A stretch of DNA of 33,685 nt from an uncultured Gemmatimonadaceae bacterium (GCA_966211115.1 CBIHMX010000001.1:1-33685); one strand, 5' to 3'. Positions 1-33,685 are shown, counted from the first letter of the stretch. A program made the numbers and translations. Notes: generated from the letters alone by a model not told the origin.

Positions 1-1367
1 TGGCCGGCGTTCAGGAATCCGTGCGGACCGGCGTCGACGATCATCACGCTCGACTCGGGAGTCCAGCCGCTGCGGATCACGCAGGTGCCGCCGTCGGCAA
101 ACCGGCGCGCGGTCGTGTCCGGTACGTTGCGTCGCAATTCATATAATGAAGTGGCGCCAGCCGGCCCCAGCAGCCAGACCAGTTCCGCACCCGGGGGGTT
201 GCCCACCGCGGCGAAGTCCTCGCGGCCGAACAGCGCCGCGCCTAACGAGAGCGGTGTCCGCGTGTCCTGTGCCGTCCGTTCATCGAGAAAGAGCAACCGC
301 CCGCCGTCGTCATCACCCACCAGCGGCATCGTTCCATCGGGCCGCGTCAGCCACATCAGGTGCTCGAGCAGCCCCACCAGCGCGCGCTCGAGGCGCGGGC
401 GCACGGTCATCCGTGCCCGTTCGGCCAGCACCAGGAAGTGGAGGTAGAAGTCGGTGGTGTAGCGGTGATACCACGTGGACTGCTCCACGTACGAACCGTC
501 GGGCCGGACGTGCCGGTCCACCCAGTCGAGCAGGATAGCCGACCCGATGCGTTGCCACGACGACGCTTCACGAATCTGCGGCAGCGCGGTGCCGATGGCG
601 AACAGGCCGAGCGCCTCGCCGGTGAGGTGCGTGTTCGGGCTGAACCACGTGGAGAGGTGCCGCTCGATATGCCGGCCGGCGATGGCGATGTGGCTGATGA
701 CGCGCAGGCGCAGTTCGGCGGGCATGCGGTCGTCGAGCAGCGCCAGCACCCAGAGCCAGGCGATCGACCGGAAGGACAGTTCGAGGCTGCTCGACCAGTG
801 CACTCCGCGCTTGGGCGGGTTGGCGGCCAGCCAGCTGCCTAACAACTCGACGCAGCGATCTGCATAACGAGCGTCCTGCGTGCACCACCACGCCTGCCCG
901 AGCGTCACCAGCGCCTGGTGCCGCCCGAGTTCCCACACCAGCTTGTGGTCACCCACCCGCGCCGGGTCGAGGAAGTCGATCTCGCTCCAGTGCGCGTCTG
1001 GCGCGCGCACCCGCGCCTGCGGCTCCATCCACCAGTCGATCGGGTCGGCGAGGACCAGCCCTCGATGGCCAAGCAGGTCGTACTGGTTGGCCAGCAACCG
1101 GTCGGCCCGTTCACGCAGGCGCGTGAGGTAGTTGGCGTCGAGGGTAGCGAGTGCATCCAGCGTGGCCTGGCGATCGTCGAACGCCGCAAAGAACGGCCCC
1201 GGCAGCCCGCGCGATGACGTCGTGTCCGCGACGAGCAGGCGGCGGGGATCGGGCTCACCAACGTCACCAATGCCGACGCGTTCCAGCCAGCGCGTGGCGC
1301 CCTGCCTCGCCCGATCGAGGAGCTCGGACGCGGAGCGCCCGCGCAGTTTGGCGAGTGAGGTGACCAT
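1..1367 (-). CDS. Heparinase II/III family protein (alginate-lyase-like N-domain), partial: the N-terminus is in the window and the C-terminus runs off the left edge
   Basis: My own translation of the minus strand from the ATG at 1367-1365 gives an uninterrupted frame to position 1. It reads MVTSLAKLRGRS...DHKLVWELGRHQALVTLGQAWW...HWSSSLELSFRSIAWLWVLALL...PDGSYVEQSTWYHRYTTDFYL...RPDGTMPLVGDDDGGRLL. These are typical heparinase II/III N-terminal and catalytic-region motifs. The gene is absent from the ORF track because the frame is not closed inside the window. Its ATG overlaps the TAA stop of the upstream GT4 gene by 1 nt. Confidence 0.8.
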   Translation of the reverse strand, partial: MVTSLAKLRGRSASELLDRARQGATRWLERVGIGDVGEPDPRRLLVADTTSSRGLPGPFFAAFDDRQATLDALATLDANYLTRLRERADRLLANQYDLLGHRGLVLADPIDWWMEPQARVRAPDAHWSEIDFLDPARVGDHKLVWELGRHQALVTLGQAWWCTQDARYADRCVELLGSWLAANPPKRGVHWSSSLELSFRSIAWLWVLALLDDRMPAELRLRVISHIAIAGRHIERHLSTWFSPNTHLTGEALGLFAIGTALPQIREASSWQRIGSAILLDWVDRHVRPDGSYVEQSTWYHRYTTDFYLHFLVLAERARMTVRPRLERALVGLLEHLMWLTRPDGTMPLVGDDDGGRLLFLDERTAQDTRTPLSLGAALFGREDFAAVGNPPGAELVWLLGPAGATSLYELRRNVPDTTARRFADGGTCVIRSGWTPESSVMIVDAGPHGFLNAG

Positions 1368-2557
1368 TACGCCGGTGCGGTGGCGCGATGCGCCGCCATG
1401 TCCCGGTACAGGTGGACCCATTCGTCGCGGACGGCCGGCCAGGTATAACGCTCCAGGCAGGCCGCTCGCGCCGCCCTCGTCAGGCGCAACGCCAGACCCG
1501 GCTCCTCGAGCAGACGCAGTGACGCACGGGCCAGCGCGTCGTGATCGCCCGGCGGCACCAGCAAGCCCGTGTCCCCGTCCTTCACGATCCAGGGGATGCC
1601 GCCAGTTGACGTGCTCACGACCGGAACCCCGGCTGCCTGGGCCTCGATCAGCGACAGCGGCATGTTGTCGATATCGGGACTATTCAGGAGAATGTCGGCA
1701 TCGTTCAGCAGCCTGGCCATCTCGTCAGGCGGAACACGCCCCGTGAACGTCACGTTCCGGAGGTTCAGTGACCTGACCAGCGCTTCGAGTTTCCCCCGTT
1801 CACGACCGTAACCCGCCACCGTCAGCGTGGCCTCGGGTATCCGCTCCTGCACCAGCGCGAACGCGCGGATCGAGCACGACACATTGTAGTGCACCTCGAA
1901 ATTGCGATTGCTGAGGAACACCGGTCGAACCGTCGAACGTTCGCGGTACGGAAACGCATCGGCGTCGATGAAGTTGTGGATGGCAATCGTTTCGAGGCCG
2001 AACCGGGCAAAGACTTCTCGCAGGTAGCCAGAGGGCACCACGATCCGGTCGGCGAGCCGCGACAGCGGAATGGCGCTGCGCCAGTTGGCCAGGTGATCCT
2101 CTGCTTCACCACTGTGGTAGTTCAGCAACGCGGCGCGGCCAAAAAGGCGTGCCACAAGCATGGCCGGCACCGGACCAAGCAGGAACGCCCAATACGAAGG
2201 TGAAAAAGCGTGGACCACATCGAACTTGCGAACGCGCGACATGAGCAGGAACCAGTAGCCGATGGATGTGACGATAGTCCGGACGTACTTCACCCGCTGC
2301 AGTGCTCCGAGCGGCCCCGGAAGCCGCGGGTTCATCGGGAGAAACCCTACCTCGATGCCGGGTGTGCCGAGCAACCGATGATGAAGGCGCGCGAGTTGGA
2401 CAGCCTGACCACCAAGGATGTCCATCGAAGGACCGGCCAGACACACCCGAACCGGGACCACGGAAGGTTCGGGAGCCCGTCGCGCTAAACCTGTCAGTGG
2501 TCGTTCCCGGGTTGCCGTACGCTCCGTCAACGCGTCCTCATTCGGTGCGGAAGTCAT
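1367..2557 (-). CDS. Glycosyltransferase family 4 (GT-B fold, Glycos_transf_1)
   Basis: The ORF is 396 aa. Its C-terminal region (NSPDIDNMPLSLIEAQAAGVPVVSTSTGGIPWIVKDGDTGLLVPPGD) matches the retaining GT4 E-x7-E nucleotide-sugar binding signature. Confidence 0.9.
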   Translation of the reverse strand: MTSAPNEDALTERTATRERPLTGLARRAPEPSVVPVRVCLAGPSMDILGGQAVQLARLHHRLLGTPGIEVGFLPMNPRLPGPLGALQRVKYVRTIVTSIGYWFLLMSRVRKFDVVHAFSPSYWAFLLGPVPAMLVARLFGRAALLNYHSGEAEDHLANWRSAIPLSRLADRIVVPSGYLREVFARFGLETIAIHNFIDADAFPYRERSTVRPVFLSNRNFEVHYNVSCSIRAFALVQERIPEATLTVAGYGRERGKLEALVRSLNLRNVTFTGRVPPDEMARLLNDADILLNSPDIDNMPLSLIEAQAAGVPVVSTSTGGIPWIVKDGDTGLLVPPGDHDALARASLRLLEEPGLALRLTRAARAACLERYTWPAVRDEWVHLYRDMAAHRATAPA

Positions 2558-2664
2558 TGTGATATTAGCTTGTTACGCGCTGGCGACCCTCTGACTTCCC
2601 GTTCTCGGGAAGGGTCACGGACAACCACGCCCGGGCTTTCCCTTACCGAAACGTAGTCCCCAAC

Positions 2665-3636
2665 ATGGCATCGAGAGTTCTGGTTACCGGCGGCGCCGGG
2701 TTTATCGGTTCCCACCTGGTGCGGCGCCTGCTCGAAACCGGCCGGTCGGTTCGAGTGGTTGATAACCTCGCCACTGGCTTCCGGCACAACCTCGACGAGG
2801 TCGGCCCGGACATCGATTTCATCGAGGCAGACGTCAGCGATCCCTATGTCTGCTCCGAAGCCGTCGCGGGCGTCGATACCGTCTTCCATGTCGCGGCCCT
2901 GCCAAGTGTTCCGCGCTCAATGGCGGATCCAATCGGGACACATAACGCCAACGTCAACGCGACCCTCAACCTTCTCGAGGCATCGCGTCGAGCCTCCGTG
3001 CGGCGTTTTGTCTACTCGAGCTCGAGTTCGGCGTACGGCGATACGCCGGTTCTGCCCAAGGTGGAATCGATGGAGCCGCTCCCCCGGTCGCCTTATGCCG
3101 CAGCGAAGCTCTCCGGCGAGATGTATGCCCTCGCGTACGCTCGAGCCGGGCTCGTCGAGGCAGTTGCCCTCCGCTACTTCAATGTCTTTGGGCCGCGGCA
3201 GGACCCCAACGGACCGTACGCTGCGGTAGTGCCCCTCATCTTTCGGGCAATACTCACCGAAACGCCGATGACGATATTTGGGGACGGTCGGCAGACTAGG
3301 GATTTTACCTACGTCGACAACGTCGTCGACGCGAATGTACTCGCTGCCACCGGTCCGGGGGACAAGGTGAGCGGTCATGTGGTGAATGTTGGAACGGGAA
3401 ATCGCATCTCGTTACTCGACCTCGTCGCGCTGGCGGAGGACATCACCGAACGGCGCGTTGAGGTCCGTCACCTCAGGGAAAGGGCCGGCGATGTGCGGGA
3501 TTCCCAGGCGGGACTCGACCGGGCACGCGATGTGCTGAACTACCAGCCGCACGTCTCCATCCGCGACGGTATGGCGCGACTGTGGTCCTGGTATGCCGCG
3601 AATCCGTCAGCAGTCATTGCCGCCACGCCTGGATGA
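2665..3636 (+). CDS. NAD-dependent sugar-nucleotide epimerase/dehydratase (extended SDR; UDP-sugar 4-epimerase or decarboxylase-like)
   Basis: The ORF is 323 aa. It has the Rossmann motif VLVTGGAGFIGSHLV and the catalytic YAAAK (YxxxK). It has no in-window rival frame with sensible composition. Confidence 0.9.
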   Translation: MASRVLVTGGAGFIGSHLVRRLLETGRSVRVVDNLATGFRHNLDEVGPDIDFIEADVSDPYVCSEAVAGVDTVFHVAALPSVPRSMADPIGTHNANVNATLNLLEASRRASVRRFVYSSSSSAYGDTPVLPKVESMEPLPRSPYAAAKLSGEMYALAYARAGLVEAVALRYFNVFGPRQDPNGPYAAVVPLIFRAILTETPMTIFGDGRQTRDFTYVDNVVDANVLAATGPGDKVSGHVVNVGTGNRISLLDLVALAEDITERRVEVRHLRERAGDVRDSQAGLDRARDVLNYQPHVSIRDGMARLWSWYAANPSAVIAATPG

Positions 3637-4784: not shown

Positions 4785-4793
4785 GGCAGGAAC

Positions 4794-7658: not shown

Positions 7659-7744
7659 GAATTCGTGCTGGGGCCTAACTTCATCGCGACAGTTGAGAGG
7701 ACCGTTGATTAAACGCGCTTCATGATGGCGAAACGACCCCCCGG

Positions 7745-9031
7745 ATGGTAAGCCAACCCAGCCGTTTTGCGGCGGCGGCTTTACTCGTCCCGGCTACTGC
7801 GTTCATCGCCCTGATGACGCTACGACCCGCCGCCGGGCCGACGATCCCACTGCCGTTCGCTTGCATCTTCTGCGGCACGCTTGGAGGCGTCGATTTCCTC
7901 CTCAATACGGTGCTGTTTGTGCCCTTTGGATTGGCGATATACTGGCTGCTCGGCTCAAAGAGGGCGACGGTGGCGGCCGGATTCGCCTTCACCCTCGTCA
8001 TCGAGGCGCTGCAGTGGCAGTTCATCCCGGGCCGCGATGCGTCGCTCGGTGACCTGGTCGCGAACACACTCGGCACCGTGGTCGGCGTGATGCTCGCCGT
8101 CCTCGGAAGTGCCGGACTGTATGCCATCGGGCGGCGAGCACGAATACTGGCGGCTTCGTTCGCCGTCTTCGGGTCGCTGGTGATCGTCGTGACCGGGTGG
8201 CTGCTGCAACCGGCTGGCGTTAGGCACGCGCTGGCCGTCCAGTGGAAGGCGTCCCGGCCGAACATGGACGACTTCGCGGGCGACGTACGGAAGGCGTTGG
8301 TCAACGGCACCAGGATATATCCGTTCCAGTGGATAGGACCCCGCGAATTCCTCGAGCCCGGGTCACTGACCGTTTCCGTGGAAGCGGACATCTCCCGAGG
8401 AGCCGCACCGACCGCCCGGCAATCGATCATCGTCCGGCTCGCCAACCGGTTCGAGGAGGGGTTTCTGCTGGGGCAATGGAAAGACGCCGTCATCGTTCGC
8501 TCGCATCAGGTAGCGGAAAAGCTCAGGTTCCGGTCCCTGCTCGTGGGGTTCGACGGAGTGCTGGAAGCGGAAGGCACGGCTGAATACATCACCATGAAGG
8601 CCACAAGCAATCCCCGCGCCATCTCGTTACTCCTGACGGAGGGCCGCGAAGCCACACGGTTGGACGTCCGCCGTTCCGTAGGGTTGGGCTGGACCCTCAT
8701 CCTGCCGTGGGATGTAGCGGTCACCCCCCGGTGGTGGGTTGCCAATGCGGCATGGTTGGCTGCCCTGCTGCTGCCGGTTGGCTTTTTCACCTTCCGGTCC
8801 GGGCGTCATCGAAACGGCGCCGGTGTCGTGGTGGCCTCGTGGCCACTCCTTCTGACTGTCGGAACGCTCCTGATAACATCGCGAGTGTTCGGGCTGAGCA
8901 GTCCCGGTGTCGGAGAGTGGATCGGCGTCATCGCTGGAATCGTGGCGGGTGGCACGCTGGAAAAACTCATTCCCACACATCTGCCCGCGCCCTTGAATCC
9001 ATCTGTCGTTGCGGGGACCATTCAATCGTGA
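7745..9031 (+). CDS. VanZ-like family membrane protein with an extended C-terminal region
   Basis: The ORF is 428 aa. The N-terminal region (FLLNTVLFVPFGLAIYWLL ... TLVIEALQWQFIPGRDASLGDLVANTLGTVVGV) matches the VanZ signature. Further TM segments lie at the C-terminus. Confidence 0.75.
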   Translation: MVSQPSRFAAAALLVPATAFIALMTLRPAAGPTIPLPFACIFCGTLGGVDFLLNTVLFVPFGLAIYWLLGSKRATVAAGFAFTLVIEALQWQFIPGRDASLGDLVANTLGTVVGVMLAVLGSAGLYAIGRRARILAASFAVFGSLVIVVTGWLLQPAGVRHALAVQWKASRPNMDDFAGDVRKALVNGTRIYPFQWIGPREFLEPGSLTVSVEADISRGAAPTARQSIIVRLANRFEEGFLLGQWKDAVIVRSHQVAEKLRFRSLLVGFDGVLEAEGTAEYITMKATSNPRAISLLLTEGREATRLDVRRSVGLGWTLILPWDVAVTPRWWVANAAWLAALLLPVGFFTFRSGRHRNGAGVVVASWPLLLTVGTLLITSRVFGLSSPGVGEWIGVIAGIVAGGTLEKLIPTHLPAPLNPSVVAGTIQS

Positions 9032-9621
9032 GCAACCTTCTCATCGGCTTTACGGTCGCGCGAGAGATCCTCAAGAACGTCCTGCTCTGGGGCGCGCTGT
9101 TGGTGACCGCGATCGCGACGATCGACTGGCTGGTTCGTACGCGACGGGTCAGCCCGTTCGGTCCCGTCGCGCGGTTCTTTCGCGACCGGATCGACCCCCT
9201 TCTTGCGCCTCTCGAGCGGCGCGTCGTGCGCGCCGGCGGCCTGCCCGCCTCCGCGCCGTGGTGGGCACTCGGAGCAATCGTGGTCGGGGGAGTCCTGCTA
9301 CTGGCCCTCGTCGATTTCCTCGGCGGGCTGCTCGTGGACATCGCCCGGGGGGTCGACGGAGGTCCAACCGGCATGATCGGCCTTGTGGTCTATTGGGCCT
9401 TTGCCCTGCTGCGACTCGCCATCATCGTCCGCGTGCTCGCGTCGTGGCTTCCGATGGGTCCGTATTCGCCGTGGGTGCGCTGGTCGTTCACGTTGACCGA
9501 GCCGATCCTCCGGCCTTTACGAGGCATCATTCCACCGATCCGTTCGATCGACATCACGCCGATCGTCGCGTTTTTCCTGATCGGCATCGTCGAAAGCCTC
9601 GTCCGCAACTGGTTAGGCTGA
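9028..9621 (+). CDS. yggT: YggT family membrane protein
   Basis: This is the frame of ORF 8707..9621. The upstream part of that ORF overlaps the VanZ gene, so I place the start at GTG 9028, which overlaps the VanZ TGA stop as GTGA. The YggT signature is LRLAIIVRVLASWLPMGPYSPWVRWSFTLTEPILRPLRGIIPPIRSIDITPIVAFFLI. Confidence 0.8.
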   Translation: MSNLLIGFTVAREILKNVLLWGALLVTAIATIDWLVRTRRVSPFGPVARFFRDRIDPLLAPLERRVVRAGGLPASAPWWALGAIVVGGVLLLALVDFLGGLLVDIARGVDGGPTGMIGLVVYWAFALLRLAIIVRVLASWLPMGPYSPWVRWSFTLTEPILRPLRGIIPPIRSIDITPIVAFFLIGIVESLVRNWLG

Positions 9622-9622
9622 T

Positions 9623-9910
9623 TTGCGGATCAGCGAACGCGCCGGCACCTTGCGGTTCGACGTCCGTGTCCAGCCCCGGGCATCAAAGGATGAGATCACC
9701 GGTGTCCATCAAGGCGCCCTCCGCGTGAGGCTGCGCGCGCCTCCGGTTGATGGGGCCGCCAACGACGCGCTGGTGATTTTCCTCGCTGGCGAACTCGGCC
9801 TTTCGCGCCGCGAAGTGCGCATCGTATCAGGACATGGATCACGGTCAAAGGTCGTGGAGATCGATGCAAAAGCTCGATCGGCCCTTGACCGGATCGCCTC
9901 TTCGACCTAA
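9623..9910 (+). CDS. DUF167 (YggU) family protein
   Basis: The ORF is 95 aa. The sequence LRFDVRVQPRASKDEITGVHQGALRVRLRAPPVDGAANDALVIFLAGELGLSRREVRIVSGHGSRSKVVEI is a typical DUF167 core. It lies directly downstream of yggT, as in many genomes. Confidence 0.85.
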   Translation: MRISERAGTLRFDVRVQPRASKDEITGVHQGALRVRLRAPPVDGAANDALVIFLAGELGLSRREVRIVSGHGSRSKVVEIDAKARSALDRIASST

Positions 9911-9919
9911 CGATCCCCC

Positions 9920-10330
9920 ATGATCCTCCTCGCCGGCGGAAACACCGCACTGCTCGAGGGACTTGCACAGGCGCTGGCCAACACCGGGCAGCGGGTCGCC
10001 GTCGCGCACTCGCTGGACGAAGCCGAGGAGCTGCAGGCTCAGCAGCCGTCCATCCTGACGGTGGTGGAGCGCGGATGGGTTTCCGAGACGGATCCCGCGC
10101 GATCGTTCGTTCGCGCGACGTTAGGTGGAGGCGGGGCGCTCGTCACGTACCGCGAAGCTGGTGACACGTCGCGCGCCCTCGTCGCCTCACTGGCACGCCA
10201 CGTCCTGGCCGACCTCGTGCTGCCGCTCGAACGGAACCGCATGGTCGCCCTCGCGGAACATCTGTCGACCCGTGCCAGGGTCATTGGCCGCTCTCCCGAA
10301 ATCACGCATCGGGACTCGCCGGCGACCTGA
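9920..10330 (+). CDS. Hypothetical protein, possibly a degenerate CheY-like receiver fold
   Basis: The ORF is 136 aa. The N-terminus (MILLAGGNTALLEGLAQALANTGQRVAVAHSLDEAEEL) has an alternating beta-alpha pattern, but I cannot identify the acidic pocket or phospho-acceptor. It is tightly packed behind DUF167. Confidence 0.45.
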   Translation: MILLAGGNTALLEGLAQALANTGQRVAVAHSLDEAEELQAQQPSILTVVERGWVSETDPARSFVRATLGGGGALVTYREAGDTSRALVASLARHVLADLVLPLERNRMVALAEHLSTRARVIGRSPEITHRDSPAT

Positions 10331-12198: not shown

Positions 12199-15100
12199 GT
12201 GCTTACGCCTCGGGCAAATTTTGTATCCGGGATCCCGTTGACTAGAAACGACTTAGCCAGGAATCCATCCGCCTACCTGGACGCCCTCGACCGGCGCGTC
12301 CTGGTCTATGACGGAGCGATGGGCACGAGCATCCAGCGTTACAAACTGACCGCGGACGACTTCGGCGGCAAAGCCCTCGAAGGATGCAACGATCATCTCG
12401 TATTGACGCGCCCGGATGTCATCCGGGAAATCCACGAGTCGTTCATGGCAGCAGGGTGCGATGTACTGGAAACGTGCACGTTCCAGTCGACGCCCCGGCG
12501 CCTGGAAGAGTGGGGCCTGCTCGACAAGGCGCGCGACATCAACGTCCAGGCCGCCCGGCTCGCCCGTGAAGCCGCTGATCGTTATGCAACACCAGACCGT
12601 CCGCGATTCGTGGCTGGTTCGATCGGCCCGACCGGACTCCTTCCGTCCAGCAGCGACCCGGTCCTTTCCGATACCACGTACGAGGAACTGCTGGACCAGT
12701 ATTACCAGCAGGCCAAGTACCTCGTCGAAGGCGGCGTGGACGTCCTGCTGGTCGAGACGGCGCAGGACATCCTCGAGGTGAAAGCCGCCCTCGCCGGGTT
12801 CGAAAAGCTCTTCGCGGAACTCGGCCGGCGCGTGCCGGTCCAGGCCCAGGTCACGCTCGACACCAGCGGCCGGATGTTGTTAGGCACGGACATCGCCAGT
12901 GCGATGACGACGCTGGAGTCGCTCCGCGTCGACGTCCTGGGGTTGAACTGCTCGACGGGCCCCGAGCACATGCGGGAACCGATCCGGTACCTCACCGAAC
13001 ACGCGACGCGCCCGGTGTCCTGCATCCCGAACGCGGGGCTGCCCCTCAACACGGGAACCGGCGACGCGGTCTACCCGCTCGAGCCGGAACCGATGGCCAC
13101 GATGCTCGCCGAGTTCGTCCGCGACTTCGGCGTCAGGATCGTGGGCGGCTGCTGCGGCACGACTGCAGAGCACCTGCAAGCGGTGTGTCGCGAGATCGAT
13201 GCCCTCGGGGTCAGGGCGGTCCCGCACACCCAGACTGATGGTCTCGAACGTCCTGATTCCCGATTCCCGATTCCCGATTCCCGGATCCCCGATTCCCGAT
13301 TCCCGATTCCCGATTCCCGGATTCCCGAATCCCGTCGCCACGCGGTGCCCCGTCTGTCATCGGCAATGCGCGCCATCACCATGCGCCAGGATCCCGCCCC
13401 GCTCCTCGTCGGAGAACGGGTGAATTCGCAGGGTTCGCGCAAGGTGAAGCGCTTTCTCCTCGCCGATGACTACGACGGCATTCTCGACGTCGCCCGTGAA
13501 CAGGCCGAGTCCGGCGCGCATGTCCTCGACGTGTGCGTCGCACTCACCGAGCGTGCCGACGAAGCCGAGCAGATGGCGAAGGTCGTGAAGCTGCTCTCGA
13601 TGAGCGTCGAGTCGCCGCTGATGATCGACTCGACCGAGGCCGGCGTCATCGAAGCCGCGCTCGAGCACGTTCCCGGCCGCGCGATCATCAACTCCATCAA
13701 CATGGAGAACGGCCGCAAGCGTATCGACGCGGTCGTGCCGCTGGCGAAGAAACACGGCGCGGCGCTCGTCGCGCTCACCCTCGACGAAGTCGGCATGGCG
13801 AAAACGCGTGATCGGAAGCTCGAGATCGCGAAGAAGATCCATGACATCGTCGTGAACGAGTACGGGCTCACATCAGGGGACCTGGTCTTCGACGCCTTGA
13901 CCTTCACGCTGGCCACCGGCGACGCCGAATGGATCGAGTCGGCGAAGGAAACCATCGAGGGCATCCGGCTCATCAAGCGCGAACTGCCAGGCGTCTTCAC
14001 CATCCTCGGCGTCTCCAACGTCAGCTTCGGCCTGTCGGCCGGGGCGCGCGCCGTGCTGAACTCGGTGTTCCTGCATCATTGTGTGCAGGCTGGACTGGAC
14101 GCGGCGATCGTGAACCCCGCCCACGTCACGCCGTATGCCGAGATCCCGCCCGGCGAGCGCACGCTCGCGGACGATCTCGTCTTCAACAAGCGGCCGGACG
14201 CATTGCAGCGGTTCATCGAACACTTCACGCAGGCCGAAGGCGGCAGTGCAGCGGCCGAAGTGACGCGCGTGGATCCCACGATAGGCATGACGCCCGACCA
14301 ACGCGTGCACTGGATGATCGTCCATCGCAAGAAGGATGGGATCGAGGAGTCGCTCGATGCCGCCGGCGTTCGCGAAGCTCCGGTCCGTGTCCTGAATGAC
14401 GTCCTGCTCCCTGCGATGAAGGAGGTCGGCGACAAGTTCGGCGCCGGTGAACTGATCCTGCCATTCGTGCTGCAGTCGGCTGAAGTGATGAAGAAGGCCG
14501 TGAAGCACCTCGAGCAGTTCCTCGAACGTTCCGAGGGATACACGAAAGGCCGCGTGGTGCTCGCCACCGTGTACGGCGACGTCCACGACATCGGCAAGTC
14601 ACTGGTCAACACGATCCTCTCCAACAACGGCTACACGGTATTCGACCTCGGCAAGCAGGTGCCGGTGAACACGATCATCGACAAGGCGATCGAAGTGAAC
14701 GCCGATGCGATCGGCTTGTCGGCGCTCCTGGTAAGTACGTCGAAGCAGATGCCGATCTGCGTGCAGGAACTGGACAAGCGGGGGTTGAGCGTCCCCGTGC
14801 TGATCGGTGGCGCGGCAATCAACCGGCGGTTTGGCCGGCGTACGCTGTTCGTCGAGGGCGAGCGCGCCTACGGCCCGGGAGTGTTCTACTGCAAGGACGC
14901 CTTCGAGGGACTGGACACGGTCGAGGCGCTGATGGACGTGCCTAACCGCGCGACGCTGGTGAGGAAACTCGTCGACGAAGCACGCCGGGACGTGTTCCTC
15001 AACACTGCCATGGGCAAGGAGGATCGGGGGGGCACGACCGACACGCAGCGCAGTTCGGTCTCGGCTTCGAATCCCATTCCGTCGCCGCCCGCCTGGGGCG

Positions 15101-17855: not shown

Positions 17856-18023
17856 TTCGTTATGTTGTAAGAGTTTACCCAACAAAGCTCACAGTCGTCC
17901 TAGAGAACCACCCCCGGGGTCCGCCCCGGAACCGTGCACTGGGATTTGAGCATATTGCAACTCCGATCCCGGCACCTCGCTTCGATCTTTCGTTAGGCCT
18001 CTCACCGACCCGTTCGTCGACGG

Positions 18024-21136: not shown

Positions 21137-22365
21137 TGCACCTGCTCTGGCTGAAGACGGAGCTGCTCCACCCGATCGACAAGGGTGGACGCATCCGGAC
21201 CTACAGCATGCTGCGCGCCCTGAAGCGGCGCCACCAGGTCACGTACCTCACGCTCGATAATGGGCTGGCGGCACCTGACGCGGCGGCCAGGGCCCTGGAA
21301 TACTGTCACGAACTGATTCGCATTCCCTTCGTCGAAGCCCCGCGCGGCTCGCCGCGGTTCTGGATGGAACTGGCCGCCAACCTCGGGTCGTCGCTGCCTT
21401 ACGCGGTATCGAAGTATCGATCGGACGCGATGCGTCGCGCCATCGAAGACGCCGTGCGCACCCGGGCCATCGACGTCGTGGTCTGCGATTTCCTGTTTCC
21501 GAGCCAGAACGTTCCCGATCGGCTGCCCTGCCGAACGGTACTCTTCCAGCACAACGTCGAGGCGGCGATCTGGAAGCGACACGCGGACGTCCGCACGAGC
21601 GCACCGGGAAAGGCGTACTTTCGCGAGCAGTGGCGGCGCATGGCCCGCTTCGAACGGCAGGAGTGCCGCCGCTTCGACCAGGTCGTGGCCGTGTCCCGAA
21701 CCGACGCGGCGGCCATCGAACGGGAGTACGGTCTCGAGAACGTCGCGGACGTCCCGACCGGAGTGGACATCGACTACTTCCGTCCGGCAGGCCGGGCGCC
21801 CCTCGAACCGCACAACCTGGTGTTCACGGGATCGATGGACTGGATGCCTAACGAAGACGGGATCAACTGGTTCGTCGAAGACGTCCTGCCACGGATCCAC
21901 GACCGGCTGCCCGACGTCACCCTGACCGTCGTGGGTCGCAACCCCCCGGCCGCGATCCGGGCGCTCGCGGCCCGCGACCCCCGCCTTCGCGTGACCGGTT
22001 CGGTGCCTGACGTGCGTCCCTACATGGAAGCCGCCCCGGTCTTCGTGGTTCCCTTGAGGGTCGGTGGCGGAACACGGCTCAAGATCTTCGAGGCCCTGGC
22101 GATGGAGCGCGCGCTCGTCTCTACCACGATCGGCGCCGAAGGGCTTCCGCTGGTGGACGGACAGCACGCCCGCATCGCCGACCGTGCCGAAGATTTTGCC
22201 CGGCAGGTCATCGATCTCCTCAGCGAGCCCGCGCGCGCGGCACGTATGGGGCAGTCAGGCGCCGCGTACGTCCGCGAACGGTTCGGTTGGGATGGCGTCG
22301 CCGAGACGTTTGCCGCGCTGGTGACGGCGCCCGTCCCGCGCGGCGCTGCGCTGGCGTCGCGCTGA
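21136..22365 (+). CDS. Glycosyltransferase family 4, resembling PEP-CTERM/EpsH1-system-associated sugar transferases
   Basis: The start is GTG 21136, which overlaps the asnB TAG stop by 1 nt. The N-terminus VHLLWLKTELLHPIDKGGRIRTYSMLRAL resembles the LxPxxKGxxIRxY start of that family. The C-terminal GT-B part is FVVPLRVGGGTRLKIFEALAMERALVSTTIGAEGL. Confidence 0.8.
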   Translation: MHLLWLKTELLHPIDKGGRIRTYSMLRALKRRHQVTYLTLDNGLAAPDAAARALEYCHELIRIPFVEAPRGSPRFWMELAANLGSSLPYAVSKYRSDAMRRAIEDAVRTRAIDVVVCDFLFPSQNVPDRLPCRTVLFQHNVEAAIWKRHADVRTSAPGKAYFREQWRRMARFERQECRRFDQVVAVSRTDAAAIEREYGLENVADVPTGVDIDYFRPAGRAPLEPHNLVFTGSMDWMPNEDGINWFVEDVLPRIHDRLPDVTLTVVGRNPPAAIRALAARDPRLRVTGSVPDVRPYMEAAPVFVVPLRVGGGTRLKIFEALAMERALVSTTIGAEGLPLVDGQHARIADRAEDFARQVIDLLSEPARAARMGQSGAAYVRERFGWDGVAETFAALVTAPVPRGAALASR

Positions 22366-24871: not shown

Positions 24872-24884
24872 TCCACCAGGTCGC

Positions 24885-26057: not shown

Positions 26058-26086
26058 CTGGGGTCAGCCCCCGAGCCGGTTAGTTC

Positions 26087-26135
26087 GGGGTCAGACACGG
26101 GGTCAGACCCCGGGTCTGACCCCGGGTCTGACCCC
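26087..26135 (+). terminator. 24-bp near-perfect inverted repeat (probable intrinsic terminator or protein-binding array) after the acyl-CoA dehydrogenase gene
   Basis: GGGGTCAGACACGGGGTCAGACCC (26087-26110) is the reverse complement of GGGTCTGACCCCGGGTCTGACCCC (26112-26135), with one mismatch. A T-containing tail (TTGGGTTTGACCTTGTTCT) follows. Confidence 0.5.
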
Positions 26136-26174
26136 GAACTTGGGTTTGACCTTGTTCTGACCACGGAGTAGCCG

Positions 26175-28171: not shown

Positions 28172-28190
28172 CCCCGCAGTTACTTGACGA

Positions 28191-30140
28191 TCATCCACCT
28201 CGCAGGATGCCGTTGCGGATCCTGATGGCCTTCGGCGAGGCATTCCGGTCGAACTGCACCGTCTCCACGGTTCGTAACCGGTTCCGCACCGGAAGGTTCA
28301 GCGTCAATTCCTGGTTGCCGCGGAGCACCACCAGCGGAACCGTCTGGCCTTCACCGCTGCGTGCATAACGAGCGCGGTACTTGGTGCCGAATTCCGGGTC
28401 CGCGACGTCGATGTCACCCACGCGGCGGAGGTAATCCCCGAGCTCGACGCCCGCGGCTTTCGCGGCGCCATCGGGTTCGATCTCCATCACCACGATGCCG
28501 GCCGAGTCGACGTTCGTCGCTACGCCGATCCACGGTTCGCGAATCGAGTCCACGTTCATCCGCAGGCCCGCCAGCGGGAGCAGCGTCGACCACGGGAACA
28601 CCTCGCGGCCGTCGACATAGCGCGTGTTGAAGTCCGCCAGTGACCGTCCGGCCGCCCGCTGCACCGCACCCCAGCAGTCCTGCGACGTGAAGCCGCGCCC
28701 ATTCGACTTGAACGTCTGCGCGTACACGTCGCGCATGACCGTATCGAGGGAACGGGCGTTGTCGCTGGCGTCACGGATCAGGATGTCCAGCGCCAGGCCC
28801 GCCAGCGACCCCTCGGGGTAATAGATGTAGTGCGTACCGTCGGTCGGCCGGATCCAGGCCGACAGCGAGGCGTCTTCGAGAGCGACGTTAGGCGCCAGGT
28901 CGACTTCACTGATCTTTCCCGTGACCAGGCCCAGGAACTGCGACGAGTCGATGACGCCACCTCGTACCTGCGCCACGTCCGCGTAGTAATCGGTAATGCC
29001 TTCGCTCACCCAGAGCCATGGAGTGGGCTGGGCACGATCATACCGGTACGGCACCATCTCCGCCGGCCGCATCCGCTTCACATTCCAGAGATGGAAGATC
29101 TCGTGGGCGGTGATCGACGGCAGGAACTCGTGATCGACGATGAACGGCGAGTAGATCCCGAGGTGGGAGTTCTGGTGCTCGAGCGCGGCCGCGCCGGCCA
29201 TGGTCGAGTCGAACAGGATCAGGGTCGTGTACGCCGTGACCGGCATCTCGCCGAACACCTCGACCATGGGCGGGACCATCTTTCGCACCTGCGTCCAGAA
29301 GCGCTCACGGGCGGCACCGCTCATGATGCCGCGTGGATACGTCACCGTGTGAAAGGTCGTCTCGCCAATGCGTGTACTGTCCACCTCGAGCGGCCCCACG
29401 AAAAACGGCATGTCCACCAGGTCGTGGTAGTTGCGCGCCGCGTACGTCCCGCGCGCCGACCCCGGCGTCATGCCGGTCGCGATGCGCCAGTCGGACTCGG
29501 TGGTTACCGTGACCGTGGCGGCAAAATCGGTCGGCCGTCCATCGGGATAAGGCAGCAGGTTCGTGCCGTTGAAAAAGGCGAAGTCGCTGGTTGCCCACGA
29601 CATCGCGTTGTCCATCGAATCCGCCGAGTACGAAAAGGACAGCGTGATGCTTCGCGCACCGTTCGGCATGATGCGCCACGTGTCCTGGTCGCTCTTGTCC
29701 CAGCGTGGCGTCCCGCCTTCGCCGGTGACGGCCAGGCCCGTGACCTTCCGCATGTAGTCGGAGATTTCGTAGGCACCAGGCGTCCACGCCGGCAGTGACA
29801 GCAGCACAGCATCGTTGCCGCCGACGCCGAACGTCATGCTCACGCGCAGACTCCTGGTGGCAGCGGTGCTGCGGTCGAACGTCACGCCGTAGCGGACGTT
29901 CGTGATCGGTGCGGACACGGCGGCTGCAGGCGCTGCGCCGCTGCGCTGCGCGCCAGCTCCGGCACTTGCACACGCAGCCGAGGCAAGCACGAGCGGGAGA
30001 ATTCGGCGAATCACGAGTGTGGGGGTGGTAGTGGTCTCAAGTCTAACACCAGGACGCCGCACGGGATCGTTCGAACTCTGGCGTGCCATTGATTGATGAC
30101 CCGACCCGCATGCATACTCGTTTCCAGTCAACGTCCTCAT
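28191..30140 (-). CDS. M61 glycyl aminopeptidase family protein with a C-terminal PDZ domain
   Basis: The zinc motif is HEIFHLWNVKRMRP and a downstream WVSEGITDYY is present. The PDZ-like region is GIVVMEIEPDGAAKAAGVELGDYLRRVGD. The signal-peptide-like VIRRILPLVLASAACASA suggests the real start is GTG 30014 or ATG 30089 rather than 30140. Confidence 0.85.
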   Translation of the reverse strand: MRTLTGNEYACGSGHQSMARQSSNDPVRRPGVRLETTTTPTLVIRRILPLVLASAACASAGAGAQRSGAAPAAAVSAPITNVRYGVTFDRSTAATRSLRVSMTFGVGGNDAVLLSLPAWTPGAYEISDYMRKVTGLAVTGEGGTPRWDKSDQDTWRIMPNGARSITLSFSYSADSMDNAMSWATSDFAFFNGTNLLPYPDGRPTDFAATVTVTTESDWRIATGMTPGSARGTYAARNYHDLVDMPFFVGPLEVDSTRIGETTFHTVTYPRGIMSGAARERFWTQVRKMVPPMVEVFGEMPVTAYTTLILFDSTMAGAAALEHQNSHLGIYSPFIVDHEFLPSITAHEIFHLWNVKRMRPAEMVPYRYDRAQPTPWLWVSEGITDYYADVAQVRGGVIDSSQFLGLVTGKISEVDLAPNVALEDASLSAWIRPTDGTHYIYYPEGSLAGLALDILIRDASDNARSLDTVMRDVYAQTFKSNGRGFTSQDCWGAVQRAAGRSLADFNTRYVDGREVFPWSTLLPLAGLRMNVDSIREPWIGVATNVDSAGIVVMEIEPDGAAKAAGVELGDYLRRVGDIDVADPEFGTKYRARYARSGEGQTVPLVVLRGNQELTLNLPVRNRLRTVETVQFDRNASPKAIRIRNGILRGG

Positions 30141-30205
30141 GCTCTACCACCAGGAAGAACGTCGCCTCGTCCATGCAGTCCCGTGATGTACCGCAAATCC
30201 ATTCC

Positions 30206-30580
30206 ATGACACCTCTCCATGCGATCCGGCTGGCCATGATGGGCGGAGTACTGCTCTTCGGAGGCGTTTCCTGGTTCCTGCATCGCACTCCGGATTGGAC
30301 ACCCGCCGATCCCGCCGTCGTCGCTCAACTGGCGACGGTTGGACGCGTCATGTGGCTGGTCGCGGGAATCGGTCTCGTCATTCTGTTCTTCCGCTTTCGG
30401 GACGCGGCCAATCCCGGACAGGCGAGCACGCTGGCCATCCTGGCCTGGGCGTTAGGCGAATCGGTGGCGCTGTTCGGCGGCGTGGTCTTCTTCCTCACCG
30501 CCGCCGCGGCGTGGTACGTCGCCGGTGTCGTCGCGCTCACCATAGCCTTCGTGGCCTTCCCGCCGCCGGTGAACCGGTGA
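30206..30580 (+). CDS. Small integral membrane protein (4 predicted TM segments), unknown function
   Basis: This is the frame of ORF 30083..30580. I trimmed it to ATG 30206 (MTPLHAIRLAMMGGVLLFGGVSWF) to avoid overlap with the divergent M61 gene. It is hydrophobic throughout. Confidence 0.55.
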   Translation: MTPLHAIRLAMMGGVLLFGGVSWFLHRTPDWTPADPAVVAQLATVGRVMWLVAGIGLVILFFRFRDAANPGQASTLAILAWALGESVALFGGVVFFLTAAAAWYVAGVVALTIAFVAFPPPVNR

Positions 30581-31485
30581 TGCGCGTAGCGGCCCTGCTT
30601 CCGGCCGCGACCGACATCGTGATCGCGCTCGGCGCCGGCGACCGGCTCGTCGCGGCCACTCACGCCTGCACATTGCCGCCGCAATTGGCCGGCGTTCCGC
30701 GCGTCACGCGAAGCCGCATCGGAACGGCCAGCGCAGCAGCCGTTGATGCCCAGGTGAGCGCGCTGTCCGAGGCCGGTGCCGCGCTGTTCGATCTCGACGA
30801 AGCGGCGCTCGCCGCCACCAGGCCTGACATCATCCTCACGCAGGCGGTCTGCGATGTGTGCGCCGTCCGTGAAGCGGATGCGCGCGCCGCGGCGTCGCGG
30901 ATGCAGCCACAGCCCCGACTCACGACCCTCGGTGCCAGCACGGTCGACGGAATCTTCGGGGACATCAGCGCCGTTGGTTCCGCCCTCGAGATCGATGACA
31001 CGGACGAACTCGTGCTCGGGCTTCGGTCGCGCATGGCGCGTGTGCATCGAACTCTCAAGGCGGCCCAGGCGCCACGACCACGCGTACTCGTGCTCGAGTG
31101 GACCGACCCGCCATTCAGCGCCGGCCACTGGGTACCGGACATGGTGCGCCGCGCCGGCGGCGTCGAGACGTTAGGCACGTCAGGCGAGGTCTCGCAGCGT
31201 GTGACCGTCAGCAACGCCAGGGAAACCGGACCTGACATCGTGATCGTTGCGCCCTGCGGCTACACGCTCGAAGAAGCCGTGGAGGAAGCACGAAGCCTCC
31301 GGGCCCACGACGGCTGGCAGTGGTTGCACTCGAAACCGGTGTGGGCGGTGAACGCGACGTCGTTGACGTCGAGACCCGGCCCGGCCGTCGTCCGCGGTAT
31401 CGAAGTGCTCGCACACCTCATGCACCCTGCCCTGTTCGGGCCGCCCCAACCCGGCGACGCCCTTCCCCTGACCTCCGAGCGCTGA
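30580..31485 (+). CDS. BtuF/TroA-like (class III) periplasmic-binding-protein fold, cobalamin or siderophore binding type, without a recognisable signal peptide
   Basis: The ATG at 30580 overlaps the upstream TGA stop by 1 nt. Supporting sequences are MRVAALLPAATDIVIALGAGDRLVA, PDIILTQAVCDVCAV, RVLVLEWTDPPFSAGHWVPDMV and PDIVIVAPCG. Confidence 0.7.
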   Translation: MRVAALLPAATDIVIALGAGDRLVAATHACTLPPQLAGVPRVTRSRIGTASAAAVDAQVSALSEAGAALFDLDEAALAATRPDIILTQAVCDVCAVREADARAAASRMQPQPRLTTLGASTVDGIFGDISAVGSALEIDDTDELVLGLRSRMARVHRTLKAAQAPRPRVLVLEWTDPPFSAGHWVPDMVRRAGGVETLGTSGEVSQRVTVSNARETGPDIVIVAPCGYTLEEAVEEARSLRAHDGWQWLHSKPVWAVNATSLTSRPGPAVVRGIEVLAHLMHPALFGPPQPGDALPLTSER

Positions 31486-31494
31486 GCTCCGTCC

Positions 31495-32562
31495 ATGCTC
31501 TCTTCCGATTCACTCGCGTTCCTCAGGCGTCTCCTCGACGTTCCCGGCCCGAGCGGCTTCGAGGCCGCGGCCGCAAAGGTCTGGCGCGACGAGGCAGCGA
31601 CGTTAGGCACCGTCACCGCCGATGTCACCGGGAATTCGGTCGCGATCGTCAATGCGGGAGCGCCGGTGACGGTGATGCTCGCCGGCCACATCGATGAGAT
31701 CGGCGTCATCGTCACCTGGATCGATGACGAAGGATTCGCCTGGATCGGGCCTATCGGCGGCTGGGATGCCCAGGTGCTCGTCGGCCAGCGCATCCGCTTT
31801 GCCGGCAGGCAGGGCGATGTCATCGGCGTCGTGGGGCGCAAGCCGATCCATCTCATCAAGCGCGATGATCGCGACAAGGCGGTGAAGTTCGAGGATCTCT
31901 GGGTCGACATCGGCGCATCGTCGCGCGAGGATGCCCTCCAGCGGCTCGACATCGGCGATGCCGGCGTGATCGATGGCCGTGCCGTCGACATGCCGAACGA
32001 CCGCATCATCTCGCGAGCCATCGACGACCGGATCGGCGCATTCGTGGTGCTCGAGGCCTTGCGTCGCTACGCGGGGCAACCCGGCGTGGCCGCGGTCGCC
32101 GCCGTGGCCACCACGCAGGAAGAAATCGGATTTCACGGCGGGGGCGCCCTGGTCGCCGCCGGGCGACTCGGTCCCACCATGGCCGTCGCTGTCGATGTCA
32201 CGCACGCTACGGATCATCCGACCGCCGACAAGAAGGACGCCGGGGATCACCGGCTCGGAGGCGGACCGGTGCTGGCGCGGGGATCGGTGGTCTCGCCGGT
32301 CGTGTTCAGGATGCTGCGCGACGCCGCCAGCCGGCTCGGGATACCGGTCACCATTCAGGCCGCGGGCCGCGAGACCAGCACCGACGCGGATTTCATCCAT
32401 CTCGCCCGCGAAGGGATCCCGACCGGCCTGTTGTCGATTCCCAACCGGTACATGCACTCACCGAGCGAGATGGTGAGCCTGCTCGATCTCGACCGCGCCG
32501 CCGACCTGCTGGCTGAAGCCTGCCGATCGATAACCCCCGGGACCGACTTCACAGCCCGTTAG
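31495..32562 (+). CDS. M42 family metallopeptidase (FrvX/YsdC-like aminopeptidase/endoglucanase family)
   Basis: The ORF is 355 aa. Supporting sequences are LAGHIDEIGV, RAIDDRIGAFVVLEAL, ATTQEEIGFHGG and NRYMHSPSE. Confidence 0.9.
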   Translation: MLSSDSLAFLRRLLDVPGPSGFEAAAAKVWRDEAATLGTVTADVTGNSVAIVNAGAPVTVMLAGHIDEIGVIVTWIDDEGFAWIGPIGGWDAQVLVGQRIRFAGRQGDVIGVVGRKPIHLIKRDDRDKAVKFEDLWVDIGASSREDALQRLDIGDAGVIDGRAVDMPNDRIISRAIDDRIGAFVVLEALRRYAGQPGVAAVAAVATTQEEIGFHGGGALVAAGRLGPTMAVAVDVTHATDHPTADKKDAGDHRLGGGPVLARGSVVSPVVFRMLRDAASRLGIPVTIQAAGRETSTDADFIHLAREGIPTGLLSIPNRYMHSPSEMVSLLDLDRAADLLAEACRSITPGTDFTAR

Positions 32563-32598
32563 GCAGGGCGGGTGGCCATGCCGAGGGCTGCCGCCTCG

Positions 32599-33685
32599 TC
32601 AGGCGGATAGCCTTTTCATCGCGTTTTCGACCGCCGCTCTCACGTCACGATCGCGGTCGGAGGCCAGCTCCTGCAGCGCCTGACGAGCCGAGGGTGTATT
32701 CGCGTCGGCCAGGGCTTCGATCGCCCGAATCCGCATGGGGGCCGGCTTTCGCAACAGCAACCCGCCCGCCTCCGCGGCGCGGATCAGCCGGGAGATGCCA
32801 TCTTCGGTCGGCGCCGAACCGAGCGCGCTCACCAGCGCCCCCTGGATGTCGGGATCCTGTTCGTGGTCCAGCGCCTCGATCAGCCAGGGCACGGCGCGCG
32901 GATTCCGGGCCGAGGCGATCGCCTGGATCACATGGAGGCGGACATCGGGCGACGGATCATTGATCGCCTGCAGCAGCGCCAGCACCGACCGGGACGTCGC
33001 CAGCCGGCCTAACGCGGTCGCCACGGCCCGACGCACCCGCGGCTCGCGGTGCGACAGCAATTCCGCCAGCCGCCGATCCGCGTCGGTTGACCCGATCTCC
33101 CCCAGCAACCACGCCGAGTTCCGGACCACGTACCAGCGGTCGTCCGTCAACAGGTGCAGCAGCGCATTCACCGCCGCCGGACACTGGCGCAAGGCATCCA
33201 GATAGGCCCGTCGCTCGCCCGAGATGTCGCTACCGATCAGGTTGTCGATCAGCACGTCCGCGCCGACCTCTCCCGCGCCGCTCAGCACGCGGGTGCACAT
33301 CTCGCGCATGTCGCGATGGCCGGGCAACAACCGTGCGACGCCCTGCAGCAGGACCGGCCGCTGGAGCCGACGGATGCCCACCAGGAACGCCCGCTTGGCA
33401 TCCCCGTCATGGAGGTGATCGTAATGGTGATGCATGCGATCCATCACCTGGACCAGCTCCGCCCACTTGCCTTGTCCACCAAAGTCTTCCGCGGCGCGGC
33501 TGACGTCGTCGACGATTGCCACCGTGTTAGGCGCGGTGACGGCCTGGTCGAGGCGTTCGATCATTTCCTTGACCGTCTCGTCGCGCCCGGCCACACGCAT
33601 GAGCTGCACCTGCATGATCGCGTGCGATTCACCGGATTTCTTCCGCGCCGGCAGGTCCTCGATGATGGGATTCAGGCCGACCGGC
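32599..33685 (-). CDS. HEAT/armadillo-repeat protein, possibly 5'-partial (frame still open at the right window edge)
   Basis: It has repeated HEAT units: DRWYVVRNSAWLLGEIG, REPRVRRAVATALGRL, DPSPDVRLHVIQAIASARNPRAVPWLIEAL, DPDIQGALVSALG and DRDVRAAVENAM. My translation of 33616-33685 in the same frame has no stop, so the first Met at 33615 may not be the start. Confidence 0.7.
   Translation of the reverse strand, partial: PVGLNPIIEDLPARKKSGESHAIMQVQLMRVAGRDETVKEMIERLDQAVTAPNTVAIVDDVSRAAEDFGGQGKWAELVQVMDRMHHHYDHLHDGDAKRAFLVGIRRLQRPVLLQGVARLLPGHRDMREMCTRVLSGAGEVGADVLIDNLIGSDISGERRAYLDALRQCPAAVNALLHLLTDDRWYVVRNSAWLLGEIGSTDADRRLAELLSHREPRVRRAVATALGRLATSRSVLALLQAINDPSPDVRLHVIQAIASARNPRAVPWLIEALDHEQDPDIQGALVSALGSAPTEDGISRLIRAAEAGGLLLRKPAPMRIRAIEALADANTPSARQALQELASDRDRDVRAAVENAMKRLSA

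Follow-up and report, generated by a model that had tools for sequence, protein, structure and literature searches.

The subject of this report is the DNA word GTTAGGC (GCCTAAC when read on the other strand) in a stretch of 33,685 nucleotides from an uncultured Gemmatimonadaceae bacterium (GCA_966211115.1 CBIHMX010000001.1:1-33685), and by the window we mean the whole of that stretch. An initial annotation, made from the sequence alone, had picked the word out as over-represented. Our own tentative view, to which we would assign a probability of a little under 0.4, is that the word, which is best described as (C)GTTAGGC and whose 8-mer form is CGTTAGGC, may be a non-polar, genome-wide recognition word in the class of the DNA uptake sequences (DUS) and uptake signal sequences (USS) of certain proteobacteria and of the highly iterated palindrome HIP1 of cyanobacteria, its most likely role being that of a self-DNA tag for uptake or recombination. 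We place it in this class because the word is exact, occurs at about one copy per kb (0.6-1.3) on every replicon examined, is used in both orientations and in every tolerated reading frame, is in excess outside genes, is evenly spaced, is conserved, has a patchy presence among relatives and is less frequent in mobile DNA. An uptake or recombination tag is favoured because it is the only established mechanism that we know of for such a combination of features.

An exact word in excess

A recount of the window found all 20 exact copies, 14 on the plus strand and six on the minus strand, where the initial annotation had placed them, along with three GTTAGGT variants, one of which starts at 10120 and not, as had been given, at 10119. 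Twenty copies exceed expectation under every null that we tried. Dinucleotide-preserving shuffles of the window lead one to expect 1.19 copies (maximum 5), and 1000 shuffles in which synonymous codons were swapped within each gene, keeping both the proteins and the per-gene codon usage, give 3.71±1.24 (maximum 9); a codon-aware null had been proposed as a check on the over-representation, and the ratio that it returns in the window is not near 1. Since these nulls fall so far short, neither composition nor codon usage accounts for the enrichment. Nor is it an artefact of assembly, because the window's species, at 99.8% identity, is present in six other soil metagenome assemblies (ERZ272xxxx/ERZ273xxxx), made independently from six samples with MEGAHIT and SPAdes, and every copy of the word is intact in them (strains this similar are too alike to show polymorphism at the word sites).

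The edges of the word are sharp. Every TTAGG pentamer in the window (23/23) is preceded by G, as had been noticed, and the description of a short word without a longer repeat around it also stands. The flanks contribute little: among 130 pooled copies from word-rich loci, 71% have C at -1 and 78% have a purine at +7. In information terms, position -1 is worth at most 0.7 bit and position +7 about 0.25 bit, and further out there is no more than a 3-base periodicity. A dispersed repeat element, akin to repetitive extragenic palindromes or miniature inverted-repeat transposable elements, was considered and ruled out, since similarity stops at the core of the word. Two one-off forms, GTTATGC (8 copies against 1.1 expected) and GTCAGGC (24 against 10), show a secondary excess in the window.

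The behaviour of the word at scale is best seen in a relative, Gemmatirosa kalamazoonensis KBS708, a cultured strain with a finished genome, whose plasmid 1 (NZ_CP007129.1; 1,106,233 bp, 72.7% G+C) carries 892 copies, 456 on the plus and 436 on the minus strand, or 0.81 per kb. Here GTTAGGC ranks first among all 7-mers and CGTTAGGC first among all 8-mers, and the 824 copies that lie outside an integron, to which we return below, compare with 7.0 expected from an order 2 Markov model (118-fold) or 1.7 from an order 3 model, the word having been masked and the integron left out of both. Plasmid 2 of the same strain is also positive, with 20 copies against 0.8 in 50 kb. Recognition, if that is what we are looking at, would be nearly all-or-none, in that TTAGGC follows G in 824 of 826 cases, GTTAGG precedes C in 824 of 830, and 842 of the 915 TTAG tetramers on plasmid 1 lie inside the word; the flanking preferences recur too, with C at -1 in 86% and a purine at +7 in 84% of copies. 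In addition, the copies are spaced more evenly than random (gap coefficient of variation 0.82, Kolmogorov–Smirnov p=6e-10), gaps being too few at both ends of the distribution (65 against 120 below 200 bp, and 48 against 77 above 3 kb), and counts per 10 kb have a variance/mean ratio of 0.66. Small tandem arrays of the word exist as well: one at NZ_CP007129.1 1,005,342-1,005,430 consists of (GCGTTAGGCGCG)x7, with a 12-bp unit readable as Ala-Leu-Gly-Ala, a further one lies at L101:35994-36054, and 15-bp units, (CCGTTAGGCGTCCCG)n, also occur in such arrays.

Codons, strands and relatives

The proposal that selection acts on the DNA itself is supported by codon, dipeptide, stop-codon and intergenic use alike. 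Half of the TTA codons in the window (12/24) stand in TTA-GGY, all 12 of them after a codon ending in G, while TTA-GGC accounts for 11 of the 82 Leu-Gly pairs, with about 0.9 expected, and CCT-AAC for five of the 18 Pro-Asn pairs, with about 1.2 expected. On plasmid 1 of Gemmatirosa, with genes predicted by a simple caller whose output on the window agrees with the Pfam-supported map there, 369 of 421 TTA codons fall inside the word, which encodes 12% of all Leu-Gly (28% after CG) and 32% of all Pro-Asn. Even the stop codons take part: GCC-TAA-C contains 57 of the 89 TAA stops (64%), and GT-TAG-GC supplies 45 of the 177 TAG stops. Genes contain 0.63 copies per kb and the DNA outside them or at their boundaries 2.39, with a peak between convergent genes. 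A cause at the level of mRNA or peptide was ruled out, because occupancy of antisense Pro-Asn sites is no lower than that of sense Leu-Gly sites, and because the word also turns up in stop codons and between genes. A single-step mutation hotspot, in which deamination of 5-methylcytosine turns GCCCAAC into GCCTAAC, was also found insufficient, as most orthologous precursors are CTC-GGC or CTG-GGC, which lie two to three changes away.

What had been said about orientation fared less well. The word had been called strand-skewed, but a 14:6 split gives a binomial p of 0.115, and it had been called independent of gene orientation, but 13 of the 17 genic copies in the window are in the sense orientation (12 as G-TTA-GGC, encoding Leu-Gly, and one as GTT-AGG), leaving four antisense copies that all read G-CCT-AAC (Pro-Asn). 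This sense excess arises because Leu-Gly dipeptides are about five times as numerous as Pro-Asn in the window's genes; per available site, with ten word-positive loci pooled, occupancy is similar, at 15% for Leu-Gly and 20% for Pro-Asn. After stratification by gene strand and dipeptide, the pooled strand split is 59:39 against 57.8:40.3 expected, and no locus has a residual bias. It had also been suggested that orientation be plotted against GC skew and replichores. Plasmid 1 has clear extremes of cumulative GC skew at about 1.03 Mb and 0.35 Mb, and with the strands inferred from that skew its copies divide 464:428 between leading and lagging (52% leading), so that no bias is seen along the whole of this 1.1-Mb replicon, which belongs to a word-positive relative, and the suggested Chi-like or FtsK/KOPS-type polarity (KOPS, FtsK-orienting polar sequences) falls away.

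To follow the word through the phylum, we drew on about 35 loci from Gemmatimonadota, none longer than 24 kb, labelled L001 and so on; among species-representative genomes, the closest match to the window's MetH protein, at 85% identity, is in Gemmatimonadaceae. Positive lineages have 0.4-1.3 copies per kb, from the word-rich loci L013 (19 copies), L017 (21), L027 (17) and L069 (17) to the intermediate L001, L008, L011, L024 and L020. Nine further Gemmatimonadaceae loci with a similar G+C content have no copy at all (0 against 3.8 expected in 220 kb), and in Chloroflexota and other outgroups the word is at background. On a distance tree of MetH and MTHFR, two proteins that leave the deep branches poorly resolved, word-positive genomes make up at least three to five separate groups among the negatives. 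There are again secondary excesses, of GTTGGGC in the L013/L017/L027/L069 group (67 against 12) and of GTTAGGT in the intermediate group (7 against 1.1). Dialects of the word in other Gemmatimonadaceae loci were considered and rejected, the private words of L011, L016 and L024 being tandem repeats and not dispersed. These repeats are worth recording for themselves: at L011:228-627 a 21-bp unit (GAT-CAGCTACAA with about nine variable bases) is repeated about 11 times, and the word-free or word-poor metagenome-assembled genomes (MAGs) of L016 and L024 hold heptanucleotide arrays at separate places and on both strands, (CCCGTGT)n at 3341-3390, 16612-16626 and 23912-23946 in L016 and (CGGTTCC)n-like at 8595-8700, 9594-9622 and 12198-12295 in L024.

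Codon alignments of metH and its neighbour gene show what happens at individual sites. Where word-positive genomes have G-TTA-GGC, word-free genomes have N-CTC-GGC or CTG-GGC, a synonymous recoding that takes two to three steps, and some copies even change the protein, as at metH column 789 (V-K-H to V-R-H) and column 241 (L-R/K/P to L-G). Columns that hold the word recur in distant positive lineages. Conservation in orthologues had been put forward as a check, and here the word does well: 22 of the 44 copies survive between relatives that share 75-82% nucleotide identity, against 16-27% of arbitrary aligned 7-mers, a generous control given that the word spans three third-codon positions. Where a copy has been lost, its partner is often the one-step neighbour GTTGGGC.

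It had further been suggested that two motif-free stretches of the window might be more recently acquired DNA. No copy lies in 844-7672 or 21853-28886, and at available sites the count is 0 of 27 there against 16 of 73 elsewhere, which lends the idea weak support, the stretches having been picked after the data were seen. The cassette bodies of the Gemmatirosa integron contain 0.35 words per kb against 0.79 on the rest of the replicon, and on plasmid 1 the word is missing for longest over two SusC/SusD loci and over a ParA/ParB module that lies at the GC-skew minimum. Against the idea of younger DNA, the shortfall in locus-specific MAG genes relative to conserved ones is slight (15% against 22%, p=0.07), and 'locus-specific' is a poor proxy for an accessory gene. 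The longest of the word-free stretches, 10.9 kb at NZ_CP007129.1 1,021,206-1,032,069, carries ParA- and ParB-like genes, spans the cumulative GC-skew minimum and is probably a replication or partition module; three open reading frames (ORFs) beside the ParA/ParB-like genes have no Pfam match.

By Pfam, the window holds genes for polysaccharide biosynthesis, metH, a homocysteine-methyltransferase/MTHFR fusion gene, asnB, glycosyltransferases and several peptidases, and the copies are scattered through them as follows. Two minus-strand copies lie in sense in a heparinase-like gene, at 240..246 as TCG-TTA-GGC (S-L-G) and at 837..843 as TTG-TTA-GGC (L-L-G), and a third, at 7673..7679 (-), is intergenic between two divergent neighbours, an unknown 507-aa gene and a VanZ-like gene. 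The VanZ-like gene itself contains 8219..8225 (+) in the frame GTT-AGG (V-R), and 9612..9618 (+) supplies the end codons of a YGGT gene, TGG-TTA-GGC-TGA. Three copies fall in metH: 12879..12885 (+), read TTG-TTA-GGC (L-L-G) at an alignment column also occupied in L001 and L020; 14940..14946 (-), antisense as G-CCT-AAC (P-N); and 15744..15750 (+), read GCG-TTA-GGC (A-L-G) at a column also occupied in L011, L013, L017 and L024. In the fusion gene, 16265..16271 (+) reads CCG-TTA-GGC (P-L-G), and its column has the word in L001, L013, L017 and L069 too, with CTC-GGC in word-free relatives. The second intergenic copy, 17992..17998 (+), has the start of a GT2 glycosyltransferase 26 bp downstream. 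Of the two asnB copies, 19963..19969 (+), CCG-TTA-GGC (P-L-G), is kept in L001, and 20296..20302 (+), ACG-TTA-GGC (T-L-G), is matched there by GCTCGGA. Antisense copies reading G-CCT-AAC (P-N) are found at 21846..21852 (-) in a GT1 glycosyltransferase gene, at 28887..28893 (+) in the minus-strand M61 peptidase gene and at 33526..33532 (+) in a minus-strand HEAT-repeat gene, which also has a sense copy at 33007..33013 (-), GCG-TTA-GGC (A-L-G). Towards the right end, 30451..30457 (+) stands in the frame TTA-GGC in a small 124-aa gene upstream of a periplasmic binding protein gene, that gene contains 31170..31176 (+), ACG-TTA-GGC (T-L-G), and the M42 peptidase gene contains 31602..31608 (+), again ACG-TTA-GGC (T-L-G), and takes its TAG stop codon from 32558..32564 (+), as GT-TAG-GC. 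The initial annotation was thus right about both intergenic copies, about this stop codon and about a single GTT-AGG reading (at 8219), to which the copy at 30451 does not belong. As for the GTTAGGT variants, 9905..9911 (-) is intergenic, 10120..10126 (+) reads ACG-TTA-GGT (T-L-G) in a 136-aa ORF, and 16637..16643 (-; ACCTAAC) is antisense P-N in the MTHFR fusion gene, at a column where L001, L011, L017, L020, L023, L024 and L032 all have the perfect word.

Two observations on the genes themselves may be added. The metH gene and the fusion gene, in which homocysteine S-methyltransferase (a second domain of this kind) is joined to MTHFR, overlap by 4 bp (window 12199-17855, +), and the pair is conserved across the fetched Gemmatimonadaceae loci. 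A polysaccharide flippase gene at 4794-6516 (-) is seemingly split into two overlapping ORFs in different frames, 5341-6516 being a Polysacc_synt N-terminal part and 4794-5378 a Polysacc_synt_3/MurJ C-terminal part, which may reflect a frameshift, decay into a pseudogene or an error of sequencing.

The integron core

There is one identity that the first reading of the window had missed: the word is the core of integron recombination sites, whose attC and attI cores follow GTTRRRY (canonically GTTAGGC, with GCCTAAC as the inverse core). Integrons in Gemmatimonadota are already known (PMC8618304), and in the literature that we searched the word is reported only in integron contexts. Plasmid 1 of Gemmatirosa has an integron integrase gene at 856,827-857,786 (-), matching TIGR02249 with 423 bits against a cutoff of 265, and next to it lie 78 co-oriented attC sites of 91-130 bp at 797,717-856,168 (58 kb); intI and the cassettes share one direction of transcription, the so-called 'inverted' arrangement. 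Among these sites C precedes R' in 77 of 78, the commonest boxes are GTTAGGC (25) and GCCTAAC (24), and the modal R'/R'' core is identical to the dispersed word together with its preceding C. At least 120 contigs from soil metagenomes, of 38% to 73% G+C, contain an exact match to the L'' box of these sites, AACGAATCGTTGCAGCTG, from which it follows that this attC type, and presumably its cassettes too, circulates across very different genomes.

Are the dispersed copies therefore attC sites? Both this idea and that of a copy of the attC spectrum were rejected, since the copies are unpaired and their spectrum is far narrower. No attC-like R''/R' pair 50-140 bp apart exists in the window, where the nearest minus/plus pairs are 519-804 bp apart, and outside the Gemmatirosa array attC-like pairs number 13 against 17-20 by chance, true attCs being confined to the array. 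Only GTTAGGC is hyper-abundant among the 16 GTTRRRY words on plasmid 1 (GTTGAAC comes next at 3.7x, then GTTGGGC at 2.5x), and GTTAGAC and GTTAGCC, each present in 13 of the 78 attCs, are nevertheless at background among dispersed copies. Nor is the presence of an integron a sufficient cause, which is ruled out by integron contigs without the dispersed word: six such contigs, among them a 72%-GC Gemmatimonadaceae MAG and a Minicystis genome, encode IntI proteins 64-67% identical to that of Gemmatirosa and have no word in 58 kb of ordinary genes beside intI, containing it only as attC boxes, and the same is true of 120 metagenome contigs with this attC type (G+C 38 to 73%). The likeness to attC is therefore one of identical sequence, including the preceding C, and of a large integron in word-positive Gemmatirosa; the differences are that dispersed copies are solitary, sit inside conserved genes, have no inverted-repeat structure and show a far narrower spectrum, and that integron-bearing genomes generally have no dispersed word.

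A link of some kind might nonetheless exist. The integrase, or a factor that has evolved alongside it, would then use the dispersed copies as secondary sites in double-stranded form, and the copies could act as left boundaries in the formation or capture of cassettes, or as a signal common to cassettes and host DNA. We regard this as a long shot, despite the shared core and flanking C, the complete integron of 78 attCs in a word-positive strain, a GTTRRRY pattern that fits only 16 of 16384 heptamers and so makes a chance match unlikely a priori, and a mean word spacing of 1.27 kb, which is of the order of cassette size. What tells against it is the set of integron contigs and attC-bearing contigs without dispersed words, the dissimilar spectra (with neither GTTAGAC nor GTTAGCC enriched), the lack of attC-like pairing, and the plain fact that insertion at most copies would wreck essential genes, for example metH. 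That the word is functionally coupled to the integron, either because the attC core CGTTAGGC was adopted as a self-tag or because dispersed sites delimit new cassettes, seems to us similarly improbable.

What might read the word

Two families of hyper-abundant words invite comparison. Known uptake sequences have a density of roughly one per kb. The DUS of Neisseriaceae (GCCGTCTGAA core) and the USS of Pasteurellaceae (AAGTGCGGT core) resemble GTTAGGC in being short, non-palindromic, lineage-specific and present about once per kb, in occurring in both orientations with no replichore bias and in tolerated reading frames of ordinary genes, in being more frequent outside genes and less frequent in mobile or acquired DNA, in being partly conserved in position between relatives, and in reaching copy numbers far above compositional expectation (here 892 per 1.1 Mb, and 20 against 1.2 or 3.7 in the window). 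They differ in that our word belongs to another phylum, the soil Gemmatimonadota, specifies only 7-8 bases, forms no terminator-like inverted pairs and has no dialects, relatives having either the exact word or none. HIP1 (GCGATCGC), which is conserved and 15-300-fold enriched and whose function is debated (PMC5861425, PMC4390886), offers with the alternate HIPs a second set of parallels: enrichment of 15-300-fold or more, sub-lineages without the word, sharp exact-word behaviour, retention at orthologous positions above the neutral rate, non-random spacing and a function that is still argued over. The difference is that HIP1 is palindromic and tied to known methyltransferases (CGATCG, GATC), whereas GTTAGGC is asymmetric.

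If (C)GTTAGGC is indeed a tag for uptake or recombination, a sequence-specific protein would read it in double-stranded DNA, whatever the direction of replication or transcription, and DNA segments with at least one copy per kb or so would gain an advantage, be it selective or in transmission. Copies would accumulate through a bias in uptake or recombination and then be kept, and newly acquired DNA would start out word-poor. Several points weigh against this reading. Singly mismatched forms of DUS and USS, which like our word have no orientation bias, are clearly over-represented (PMC1939737), whereas the 21 one-off variants of GTTAGGC are at background on plasmid 1 (1406 against 1474 expected), with only GTTGGGC raised, 2.5-fold; this would imply a sharper recognition, or else a strong G+C pressure that erases imperfect copies. 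Terminator-like inverted pairs of the word were not found on plasmid 1, known uptake sequences, at 9-12 bp plus flanks, are longer than a word of 7-8 bp, and exact identity with the integron attC core is not something that an uptake tag predicts. In the literature searched we also found no competence, uptake receptor or binding protein for Gemmatimonadaceae, nor any hyper-abundant word or uptake sequence in Gemmatimonadota.

The initial annotation had itself proposed a DNA-uptake sequence, a methyltransferase site or a DNA-binding-protein site, any of which may be right. A HIP1-type role in methylation or repair is a conceivable but rather unlikely alternative to the uptake tag. On this account an orphan or Type IIG/III-like methyltransferase, or a nicking or mismatch endonuclease, would act at the word, which would either be made by biased correction of the very-short-patch kind or be selected as a mark for strand discrimination or self-marking. 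The all-or-none sharpness (824/826 and 824/830, with variants at background) is typical of restriction-modification recognition, patchy phylogeny is what a mobile methyltransferase or nuclease gene would produce, even spacing suits a mark needed within a fixed distance everywhere, and HIP1 and the alternate HIPs co-vary with their cognate methyltransferases (PMC4390886). However, the enzyme is hypothetical for this word, biased repair alone predicts neither even spacing nor positional conservation, an argument already made for HIP1 (PMC5861425), the route from CTC-GGC to the word takes two to three directed substitutions and not one, and one-off variants are not depleted overall as they should be under constant conversion. 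We find it improbable, too, that the word is bound by some abundant protein that is associated with the nucleoid or organises the chromosome, and that selection has therefore kept it at roughly regular distances on all replicons. Even spacing with under-dispersed counts, presence on both megaplasmids, indifference to orientation and absence from the ParAB origin module would all fit, and HIP1 has been read in the same way (PMC5861425), but it is rare for a nucleoid protein to require an exact 8-mer, none is known as a candidate, and there would be no reason for closely related lineages of one family to be word-free.

Two further accounts can be set aside with much more assurance. Chi and KOPS are about 75% or more on the leading strand, and these motifs, like the SpoIIIE recognition sequences (SRS), are short genomic words in excess that act at the DNA level, so that a Chi-like recombination hotspot or an FtsK/KOPS-type guide was a natural thought for a word that is short, in excess and confined to certain lineages and that seemed, at 14:6, to be unbalanced in the window. 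Those motifs are strongly co-oriented with replication, while ours is 52:48, even on a replicon with clear GC-skew extremes; the window imbalance is accounted for by gene strand and dipeptide supply, and an enrichment of 30-480-fold seems far above Chi or KOPS levels. A polar motif was accordingly ruled out by the stratified strand and replichore tests, and we give it only the faintest chance. To an artefact of composition, codon pairs or assembly, or to fragments of a longer repeat or mobile element, we attach practically no credence: one codon phase does hold most copies, but a codon-preserving null is short by 5-fold or more, both orientations, stop codons and intergenic DNA are all used, flanks show no repeat-like consensus, and the same copies appear in the independent MEGAHIT and SPAdes assemblies, as does the word in the finished genome of a cultured strain.

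What, then, would all this mean? To our knowledge, and in the literature searched, lineage-specific hyper-abundant words have been studied in two bacterial groups, as DUS and USS in two proteobacterial families and as HIP1 in cyanobacteria. CGTTAGGC would be a third case, an asymmetric 8-mer in a soil phylum, and would widen the phenomenon. In Gemmatirosa kalamazoonensis KBS708, cultured and fully sequenced, there is already a tractable model, and, with some close relatives having the word and others lacking it, phylogenetic profiling lends itself well to a search for the protein that reads it. The word could also be used as a marker of long-resident as opposed to recently acquired DNA in these genomes. 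Finally, the word matches the attC core exactly in a genome whose cassette array is among the larger ones known, which is a remarkable accident or else a clue to how integrons and host genomes interact. If the coupling were true, an uptake or recombination factor would have the attC core as its specificity, with host DNA and cassettes sharing one signal, and if the thousands of dispersed cores were secondary sites for the integrase, they would be relevant to the question of where integron cassettes come from.

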